DNA of 45,057 bases, taken from sequence record PP925821.1; one strand, given 5' to 3'. Position numbers and translations under genes: made by a program. Below the pieces are notes generated by a model. It did not search any database. It had not been told where the DNA came from and saw only the letters and a list, made by a program, of their open reading frames with translations. This document shows, piece by piece, positions 10,268 through 11,416 of the stretch. How positions within the stretch are numbered: position 1 is the first letter of the stretch; every line of letters starts with the position of its first letter. The stretch comes from Escherichia phage Eeyore.

Positions 10268-10304
10268 TTGCGAAATGCGCAAGAAATAAAATGCGTAAAA
10301 CGCA
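10268..10304. promoter_or_regulatory. OL-like operator pair at the head of the leftward early operon
   Basis: Palindromes TTGCG-AAATG-CGCAA (10268..10282) and TGCGT-AAA-ACGCA (10292..10304); the same two motif types recur at the cro promoter. Confidence 0.5.
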
Positions 10305-10315
10305 ATTGAAAGGGC

Positions 10316-10341
10316 GTAAAAAAACCGCCGTGTAGGCGGTT
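10316..10341 (-). terminator. Intrinsic terminator after the repressor gene
   Basis: 7-bp stem AACCGCC/GGCGGTT, loop GTGTA, followed on the minus strand by a T6 run; 19 nt past the repressor stop. Confidence 0.65.
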
Positions 10342-10359
10342 ATTTGTTCTTGGGGGATG

Positions 10360-11055
10360 TTATCCGTGCCGTTTAACAGACTGCGACTGGCTGATCATTA
10401 CCTTGCCGAAAACGTAAAATCTGTCTTCATTGGACTTATCCACTGACCACTCCCGATATTTAGGGTTATCGGAAATGACAAGAATTTTATCTGGGATCAT
10501 CTGTAATCTTTTGACATAAATTTTATCATCAAAACCAAATACATAAATCCCATCACCATCAAACTCATTGATCGAAATATCAACGAATATCAAATCACCT
10601 GGTTCAATGGTATCAGCCATGCTGTCACCACGAACGTTAATCACTTTGACCGTATCTGGTGTTCTCCCACCAAATAATACGGCGGCTCTTTCGTTGTTGT
10701 ACTCAATGGACCTGATGACATCGACGACATCACTACCTTGTATATGGCCCATGCCAGCACTGGCGCTGACATCGAGCAACTCGACTCTAAACACAGGGTC
10801 ACCCTCTCCATAAGCTGGATTTTTACCACTGGATTTACATACAGTAGTTTCATTTGGAGACGGTGTAAAGAGTTCTGCCACGCTAACACCAAGTGCCTTA
10901 GCATATTTGCTAAGCGATTGTTCAGTAAATGACTTTTGTTTTCCAGTCTCAACCCGTGAGACGTTCGCACCGTCAATACCTACAGCTTCAGCAAGATCTG
11001 AAATTTTCATGCCCTTTTCGAGGCGTAATTCTCTAATGCGGTTTCCTATGTTCAT
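10360..11055 (-). CDS. CI-like prophage repressor (HTH plus S24 LexA-type autopeptidase domain)
   Basis: 231 aa; N-terminal HTH (RIRELRLEKGMKISDLAEAVGIDGANVSRVETGK), C-terminal GDSM Ser and VKRL Lys dyad; divergent from cro-like gene. Confidence 0.85.
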   Translation of the reverse strand: MNIGNRIRELRLEKGMKISDLAEAVGIDGANVSRVETGKQKSFTEQSLSKYAKALGVSVAELFTPSPNETTVCKSSGKNPAYGEGDPVFRVELLDVSASAGMGHIQGSDVVDVIRSIEYNNERAAVLFGGRTPDTVKVINVRGDSMADTIEPGDLIFVDISINEFDGDGIYVFGFDDKIYVKRLQMIPDKILVISDNPKYREWSVDKSNEDRFYVFGKVMISQSQSVKRHG

Positions 11056-11074
11056 GCGTCCATTACAGGTTGTT

Positions 11075-11137
11075 TTTGCGTGATATGCAAAGCAACTTGC
11101 GCAAGTCGTAACTACACATTAATATGCGTAATACGCA
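11075..11137. promoter_or_regulatory. OR-like operator cluster between repressor and cro
   Basis: TTGCG-TGATA-TGCAA (11075..11089, imperfect), CTTGCGCAAG (11096..11105), TGCGT-AAT-ACGCA (11125..11137); a further TTGCG-AAAAT-CGCAA lies at 11174..11188 inside the cro 5' coding region. Confidence 0.5.
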
Positions 11138-11152
11138 ATTACAGGGGGCGTT

Positions 11153-11416
11153 ATGCAATCACCGTTAAGAAATTTGCGAAAATCGCAAGGGTTAACTCTC
11201 TCTCATGTGGCAAACGTGGTGGACATTGATCCAGCCAACCTAAGCCGAATTGAAAGAGGTCAACAAATCGCATCACTCGATGTAGCTGAAAGGCTCGTGA
11301 AGTTTTATTCGGGCCAAATTGATGAGCTCCAAATCTTGTACCCGCACCGTTATACGCAGGCTACAGAAACTGGGGCAGCATCGGTACCACAGGAAAAAGG
11401 GGAAAGCCGTGGGTAA
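11153..11416 (+). CDS. Cro-like HTH (XRE-family) regulator
   Basis: 87 aa; GLTLSHVANVVDIDPANLSRIERGQQ helix-turn-helix; SD AGGGGG. Confidence 0.75.
   Translation: MQSPLRNLRKSQGLTLSHVANVVDIDPANLSRIERGQQIASLDVAERLVKFYSGQIDELQILYPHRYTQATETGAASVPQEKGESRG

Follow-up and report, generated by a model that had tools for sequence, protein, structure and literature searches.

An operator-like palindrome inside cro as a probable auxiliary site in the immunity switch of Escherichia phage Eeyore

In phages lambda, 434 and P22, a CI repressor with a helix-turn-helix (HTH) and an S24 domain, cleavable in the SOS response, is encoded divergently from a small Cro protein, and one family of dyad operators serves both, with opposite orders of preference. 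The operators overlap the promoters PR, PRM and PL, and the cI mRNA made from PRM is leaderless. Here we describe the corresponding region of Escherichia phage Eeyore (sequence record PP925821.1; the window, the whole stretch of DNA analysed, comprises 45,057 nucleotides), which resembles these phages in its divergent CI and Cro genes, in an operator family lying over putative PR, PRM and PL promoters, and in a probably leaderless cI mRNA. We consider it likely that a lambdoid immunity switch of the phiNP / ST64B / SfII / mEp460 / phi1720a-02 type lies here, built on one 15-bp dyad operator family and equipped with a genuine auxiliary operator, here termed Ocro, inside the cro coding sequence.

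Phages phiNP and phi1720a-02 belong to the same immunity-module family and have an intergenic control region of equal length (97-98 bp). According to a preprint (Hashuel et al., bioRxiv 10.1101/2025.01.01.630987), the phiNP control region acts as a UV-inducible lytic promoter in a reporter, and this reporter is repressed in vivo by the Cro of phi1720a-02. In AlphaFold3 models given there, this Cro sits on a 20-bp semi-palindrome that precedes phiNP cro by 12 nt and, in phi1720a-02, on a site 20-39 nt ahead of cI, with Arg32 touching one guanine per strand. The predicted phiNP site coincides with the OR1 equivalent defined below and the predicted phi1720a-02 site with the OR3 equivalent; Arg32 is invariant across our Cro alignment. 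As far as its text could be consulted, the preprint deals with the intergenic control region only and mentions neither a pair of OL sites nor a site inside cro, and the latter falls outside the fragment of the phiNP lux reporter as given there. This preprint apart, no operator work was found on ST64B, SfV/SfII or e14 YmfK/YmfT, or under 'operator within the cro', and we provisionally regard the intragenic operator as undescribed so far.

The initial annotation of the window had reported palindromes on both flanks of the repressor gene, at an OL and an OR side, and these sequences were confirmed at both places. A search of all 45,057 bp for TTGCG-N5-CGCAA with at most one mismatch gave six matches, starting at 10268, 10291, 11076, 11097, 11124 and 11174. 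All of them lie within the interval of that annotation, 10268-11188 (921 bp), and no further copy was found in the rest of the window at this threshold. A total of six, against 3.3 expected, is not significant by itself. No 1 kb of 1000 Markov-simulated windows, however, contained more than three matches, and two was not exceeded in any of 5000 921-bp stretches simulated with the local composition. The palindromes are real and their clustering is non-random. Rfam returned no family over the operator region. The sites, with the putative promoter elements that they overlap, are as follows.

10254..10259, minus strand: putative PL -10 element TATCTT, 17 bp from the -35 element TTGCGC (10282..10277)
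10268..10282: OL1 operator, TTGCGAAATGCGCAA, perfect half-sites with no mismatch; its right half forms the putative PL -35 element (TTGCGC, minus strand)
10291..10305: OL2 operator, ATGCGTAAAACGCAA, one mismatch
11062..11067, minus strand: putative PRM -10 element TGTAAT, 7 nt before the cI ATG and 17 bp from its -35 element
11076..11090: OR3-equivalent operator, TTGCGTGATATGCAA, including the putative PRM -35 element TTGCAT (minus strand, 11090..11085)
11097..11111: possible weak OR2, TTGCGCAAGTCGTAA, one mismatch, containing the putative PR -35 element TTGCGC (11097-11102)
11120..11125, plus strand: putative PR -10 element TAATAT, 17 bp from TTGCGC
11124..11138: OR1-equivalent operator, ATGCGTAATACGCAA, over the putative PR -10 element and start (about 11132)
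11174..11188: intragenic operator Ocro, TTGCGAAAATCGCAA, in cro codons 8-12, no mismatch, centred at about +50 of PR and 50 bp from OR1

Ocro coincides exactly with cro codons 8-12 (TTG CGA AAA TCG CAA). The initial annotation had placed a palindrome within the first codons of cro, and this position stands. Three features support 11153 as the cro start, ahead of the palindrome: a Shine-Dalgarno sequence GGGGG 4 nt before this start, the invariance of residues M-Q-S-P-L-R in relatives whose codons 4-6 vary synonymously, and a Pfam match to HTH_3 (7e-10) that begins at residue 5. For comparison, 87 related loci were collected with a Cro alignment, together with five more distant loci found by tblastn; a scan of genome contigs gave seven loci only, the scan of viral contigs being the productive one. 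Both Ocro cores, TGCG and CGCA, are unaltered in all of the related loci (91 of 91), which have 17 sequence variants of the site between them.

Codon usage among 25 representative cro sequences follows the operator. Leu8 is always encoded by TTG (or replaced by Val, GTG), whereas the invariant leucines 5, 16, 30, 48 and 62 each use four to six codons. For Arg9 only CGN codons occur, each of the four third bases among them, whereas AGR and CGN are both in use for Arg6, Arg35 and Arg47. Codon 11 is restricted to TCG and GCG; at Ser41 every TCN codon is found. In the operator spacer, codon 10 changes its amino acid (K, T, I, N), and the replacements at codons 8, 11 and 12 (L/V, S/A, Q/H) all occur through bases outside TGCG/CGCA. 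Changes were also counted by Fitch parsimony on a tree built from the rest of cro, codons 8-12 excluded. The third positions of codons 8 and 11, which are the two core G's, showed 0 changes, compared with a median of 6 elsewhere, and those of codons 9, 10 and 12 showed 6, 5 and 5. Only 3 of 63 third positions were unchanged, namely those of codons 8, 11 and 2. The intragenic half-sites are thus under purifying selection at the level of the DNA.

Both switch proteins could read this site. The HTH regions of CI and Cro are 47% identical over 34 amino acids (E = 1e-8), and their recognition helices, IDGANVSRVETGKQ in CI and IDPANLSRIERGQQ in Cro, share N-x-S-R-x-E. Because these helices are nearly identical, CI and Cro would share one operator family, as in lambda and 434, and the two paralogous HTH domains probably both read it, Ocro included. 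Alternatively, Ocro might serve Cro alone, in negative autoregulation or as a roadblock during lytic growth, with CI making no use of it. Its position suits this role, as it stands some 50 bp past the PR start in the path of the Cro transcript, and the AlphaFold3 work on relatives deals with Cro and not CI. We nevertheless judge a Cro-only site unlikely, since Ocro matches perfectly the consensus that it shares with OL1, and with so similar a recognition helix CI could hardly be expected to ignore it.

It is less likely again, in our estimate, that the cro palindrome does not bind protein as DNA at all and is kept by the Cro protein, by constraints on codons or translation initiation, or by an mRNA hairpin. 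The palindrome does encode helix 1 of the HTH, but the protein sequence is not fixed there: residues 8, 10, 11 and 12 all change, and they do so only via bases outside the cores. Similarly, the third position of codon 2, beside the start, is as invariant as those of codons 8 and 11, and yet the neighbouring codons 5, 6, 9 and 10 are free to vary. A 6-bp hairpin is present in the minimum-free-energy fold; the fold, however, is no stabler than that of shuffled sequence (z = 0.19), and the outermost bases do not keep pairing (T-A 10, T-T 4, T-C 4, G-T 2, G-C 1), so that the RNA-hairpin version, with this z value and an outer pair free of covariation, was rejected. The absence of the site from distant relatives also speaks for this reading. 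Where the palindrome does occur, the conserved bases match exactly the half-site cores of the intergenic operators, which favours a DNA-binding site.

Two other candidates for the sequence inside cro were tried and rejected. A PL-like leftward promoter has its -35-like half, with no -10 element at 17 bp in either the window or ST64B. A CII-type TTGC direct repeat was discarded because the repeat is inverted.

The six sites form a single 15-bp family with the consensus TTGCG-N5-CGCAA and an invariant core TGCG-N5-CGCA. The initial annotation had instead distinguished two operator classes, TTGCG-N5-CGCAA and TGCGT-N3-ACGCA, possibly for two regulators (CI versus Cro, or a third protein). This division is not supported, as both patterns are one 15-mer, xTGCG-N5-CGCAx: TGCGT-N3-ACGCA matches exactly at 10292 and 11125, which are two of the six 15-mer sites, and a single 15-mer search with at most one mismatch catches both patterns. 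ATGCGtaaaaCGCAA and ATGCGtaataCGCAA depart from the consensus at position 1 only. At OR1 the PR -10 hexamer TAATAT (11120-11125) overlaps operator positions 1-2, and the A at position 1 is there because the same base is position 5 of the hexamer TAAnAT. Base counts were further tabulated at the six site positions in 21 representative lineages (<97% identity). Operator positions 2-5 and 11-14 make up the conserved core, while positions 1, 6-10 and 15 are variable at each of the six sites, in no pattern that would divide the sites into two classes. The nearly alike recognition helices of CI and Cro give no reason to expect two classes either.

What speaks for a division is the resemblance of particular sites in the window, where OL1 is most like Ocro and OL2 most like OR1 (23 of 31 nt identical in each pair, 13 of 21 outside the core). 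The first of these likenesses had been read as an OL copy duplicating about 20 nt of the 5' end of cro. The likeness itself is there; the duplication is not borne out, since OL1 and Ocro share only 15-19 of 31 nt in phiNP, ST64B, mEp460 and a Klebsiella phage, which is background. The similarity of OL1 to cro therefore seems to consist of the operator consensus plus A/T-rich flanks, the extra similarity being confined to the window's own lineage. Taken together, these observations make two operator classes a distinctly improbable alternative to the single family. Still further removed, and very improbable indeed, is the idea that the OL-side palindromes are weak terminator hairpins behind the repressor gene and not operators: a scan does list them as terminator-like on the minus strand, but their 5-bp stems lie downstream of a far stronger terminator (10323-10341), their half-sites are identical in type to those of the OR sites, and they overlap a conserved -35/-10 pair.

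The arrangement of the sites is retained in relatives down to 70% nucleotide identity. In every lineage of the clade whose Cro begins with MQSPLR, the OL sites are 22-24 bp apart and OR3 lies exactly 48 bp from OR1; the distance from OR1 to Ocro is 50 bp, or 51 bp in two lineages. OL1 was found in all 21 representative lineages, and the position of OL2 is kept at 53-57 bp from the repressor stop codon; the OL pair stands just past the cI terminator. More distant relatives, with Cro proteins 47-56% identical, were available in Cronobacter phage ENT47670, Serratia phage BZS1, Acinetobacter phage 4316 and Morganella phage IME1369_01. The first three retain OR3- and OR1-type TGCG-N5-CGCA sites 47-48 bp apart; IME1369_01 has an intact OR1-type site and, at the OR3 position, a site whose right half has decayed to CACAA. 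None of these four phages has the palindrome inside cro, ENT47670 and BZS1 having a half-site ATGCG only. Because distant relatives have OR3 and OR1 sites without Ocro, the latter appears to be a clade-specific auxiliary operator, acquired and kept by one large clade.

As had been expected from the initial annotation, the sites overlap conserved promoter-like hexamers for PR, PRM and PL. The putative PR hexamers and their spacing recur in all relatives (TTGCGC-17-TAAnAT). OL1 overlaps the -35 element and spacer of the putative leftward promoter PL, whose geometry is seen elsewhere as TTGCGT-17-TATCTT (phiNP), TTGCGC-17-TAATTT (ST64B) and TTGCAT-17-TATCTT (mEp460). The sequence 'attaca' of the putative PRM -10 element is conserved in the 21-lineage alignment, as is the position of the -35 element. 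Since this -10 element is only 7 nt before the cI ATG, the cI message from PRM is probably leaderless.

Whether 11097-11111 acts as an operator OR2 is uncertain, because its right half CGTAA is recognisable only in the window's sub-clade, where it is kept 21 and 27 bp from its neighbours; the corresponding sequences in ST64B, mEp460 and the Klebsiella-type lineages have 2-5 mismatches. The same place holds a 12-bp perfect palindrome, ACTTGCGCAAGT (11095-11106), which carries the PR -35 element and is near-invariant, distant relatives included (cTTGCGCA). It consists of two operator half-sites abutted without a spacer, with TTGCGC on both strands, and may be more than the PR -35 element, for example a -35 element shared by, or competed for by, divergent promoters.

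Several observations weigh against an operator function for Ocro or against the switch as outlined. The third position of codon 2, near the cro start, is equally invariant, and synonymous conservation in such a position can have translational causes. Distant relatives manage without Ocro, which must therefore be dispensable for the basic switch. A strict sigma-70 consensus scan of 9600-11500 found no promoter, and for this reason the promoter assignments rest on the conserved hexamers spaced by 17 bp. The spacings of 48, 50 and 98 bp (OR3-OR1, OR1-Ocro and OR3-Ocro) correspond to about 4.6, 4.8 and 9.3 helical turns; as these spacings are off-phase, short-range looping among OR3, OR1 and Ocro is not clearly favoured. 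A literature search of incomplete coverage gave no binding data for Eeyore, nor any for the intragenic and OL sites of a relative.

With these points in mind, a working scheme can be proposed in which we infer the promoter assignments, the pairing of protein to site and the mode of action. In the lysogen, CI dimers on OL1/OL2 and on OR1 (with or without OR2) would shut PL and PR, and occupancy of OR3 would limit PRM. CI at Ocro would most likely add to the repression of PR in the lysogen. It could act as a roadblock to any RNA polymerase getting past OR1. It could also increase the amount of CI bound locally, through contacts made with OR1 or, over some 900 bp, with the OL sites; a long-range contact of the latter kind would be independent of phasing. 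After cleavage of CI, Cro would use the sites of CI, and Ocro would then let Cro damp its own operon.

A more elaborate version is possible, although we hold it to be rather doubtful. In it, the two consensus-perfect sites OL1 and Ocro bracket the cI-PRM-PR cassette, in a loop of about 900 bp bridged by CI or in a repressosome wrapped with OR3 and OR1 (sites at about -49, -1 and +50 of PR), and Ocro is needed for prophage stability. As all members of this widespread module have the operator core in common, among them Stx-converting and Shigella serotype-converting phages, Ocro could in addition be a main point at which the CI or Cro of a co-resident prophage shuts the lytic operon of a rival.

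The genes around the operators, and the terminator between cI and the OL pair, are the following.

10323..10341, minus strand: intrinsic terminator of the repressor transcript, a hairpin with T-runs on both strands
10360..11055, minus strand: CI-type repressor gene, 231 amino acids, with an N-terminal HTH and a C-terminal S24 autocleavage domain
11153..11416, plus strand: cro gene, 87 amino acids, with an XRE-type HTH

The repressor matches Peptidase_S24 (3e-21) and HTH_3 (9e-12) in Pfam as well as phrog_4 (9e-59), with UmuD and the 434 repressor among its matches to PDB structures, and its translation contains Ala-Gly, GDSM and VKR motifs. The cro gene is divergent from cI, with 97 bp between the starts on opposite strands. 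A repressor combining HTH and S24 domains next to a divergent, small HTH protein Cro is the arrangement of a lambdoid switch. The features of the phiNP-type module are present as well: a Cro orthologue starting with MQSPLR is followed by a CII-like gene of CP76 / YmfL type (matches to Phage_CP76 and phrog_101), and a 97-98-bp control region carries TGCG-N5-(C/T)GCA sites at fixed offsets, with a further site at +21 of cro. The equivalent of the cI terminator, a GC hairpin and A/T run, is found in all relatives. Over 9600-12300 the nearest public phages are Escherichia phage Flotzy (96.6% DNA identity) and then Citrobacter phage phiNP (82%); Salmonella ST64B, mEp460, Stx2-converting phages and phage 1720a-02 follow at 70-73%. 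The Cro proteins of mEp460, ST64B and phiNP are 57-80% identical to that of Eeyore, with phiNP at 80%.

The apparent GTG start of the CII-like gene (11409) overlaps the cro stop codon (11409-11416, GTGGGTAA), and the genes of phiNP and mEp460 are annotated likewise; this overlap suggests that cro and the CII-like gene are translationally coupled. Downstream of the CII-like gene, ST64B (L003, 3632-3820) and mEp460 (L004, 3346-3534) have above-threshold matches to isrK and C4 antisense RNA, the P1/P7-type antirepressor control, within an antirepressor region. The window is without this isrK/C4 antirepressor module, and DUF4222 and replication genes come directly. Public records of this region appear to have annotation problems. 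In Flotzy (PP925827.1; L001, 2961-3171) cro is unannotated, and two small 'hypothetical proteins' on the minus strand cover the operator and cro region. The repressors of phiNP and mEp460 (L002 and L004) lack 15 amino acids in their annotation, and HTH helix 1 with them; the longer, leaderless repressor start MNIGNR... is kept in all lineages.

The first convincing leftward gene after the putative PL is 9638..9267; the roughly 600 nt of the window before it (9640-10250) contain no convincing open reading frame, and the relatives are alike in this. Just downstream of the predicted PL start, the leader motif CCTGCCTGTTCGCTG (10229-10243, plus strand) is kept in many otherwise diverged relatives. 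Further along, at 9798-9896 on the minus strand, there is a full-length match to the Rfam model of RprA that stays below threshold (41.2 bits against a gathering score of 70, E about 0.001-0.005). Its 3' half, AUUGCUGUGUGUAGUCUUUGCCC, reproduces the RprA consensus exactly, with a terminator hairpin (9827..9807) and a U run at its end. The element lies downstream of, and on the same strand as, the putative PL; it occurs in phages Flotzy and LLS and was undetected in phiNP, ST64B and mEp460. Possibly the phage carries here a mimic of the RprA seed region.

The module is carried by medically relevant prophages, among them Stx2 phages, Shigella SfII-type phages, Salmonella ST64B and the Citrobacter (C. 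rodentium) phage phiNP. As one operator core is common to the phages of this module, co-resident prophages can cross-regulate one another, and the phiNP preprint reports a recent instance, the Cro of phi1720a-02 acting on phiNP (bioRxiv 10.1101/2025.01.01.630987). The work found on these switches used no more than the intergenic control region of about 98 bp, and reporter or modelling studies confined to it would miss both Ocro, 21 nt into cro, and the OL pair. More generally, cro is a coding sequence bearing a regulatory DNA signal, in which amino acids change only where the operator permits.

Compared with known switches, Eeyore departs from lambda in the layout of its sites. Lambda has three adjacent operators 23-24 bp apart, whereas in Eeyore OR3 and OR1 are 48 bp apart with a weak central site at best, so that an array of three adjacent OR operators of the lambda type is absent. 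Eeyore further differs in having two OL sites, an extra site in cro and a CII-like gene of CP76 / YmfL type. For the extra site there are bacterial parallels. In gal OI (+53.5, in galE) and lac O2 (in lacZ), a copy of the primary operator in the first structural gene strengthens repression of the upstream promoter; repressor-mediated loops are responsible, for which oligomeric states and cofactors (HU for gal) are known. Eeyore is alike in having a copy of the primary operator within the downstream coding sequence (11174-11188), at about +50, although the spacing of 50 bp is off-phase here. In mycobacteriophage L5, repressor sites downstream of promoters, the stoperators, block elongation; they are asymmetric, orientation-dependent and spread by the dozen across the genome. 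The Eeyore sites differ from these in being palindromic, with none further in the 45-kb window. Separated copies of one operator are also known from TP901-1 and phi13, in which the lytic promoter is repressed by an oligomeric CI via three copies (OR, OL and a distant OD; PMC7250872, PMC4941734). Eeyore shares with them the separated copies, but the CI of those phages of Gram-positive hosts is hexameric, with an unrelated C-terminal part lacking S24, and its partner is MOR and not Cro. Since intragenic or distant auxiliary operators are known elsewhere (OD of TP901-1 / phi13, gal OI, lac O2, L5), the principle is not new, and the intragenic operator of Eeyore is a variant within an otherwise ordinary lambdoid switch.

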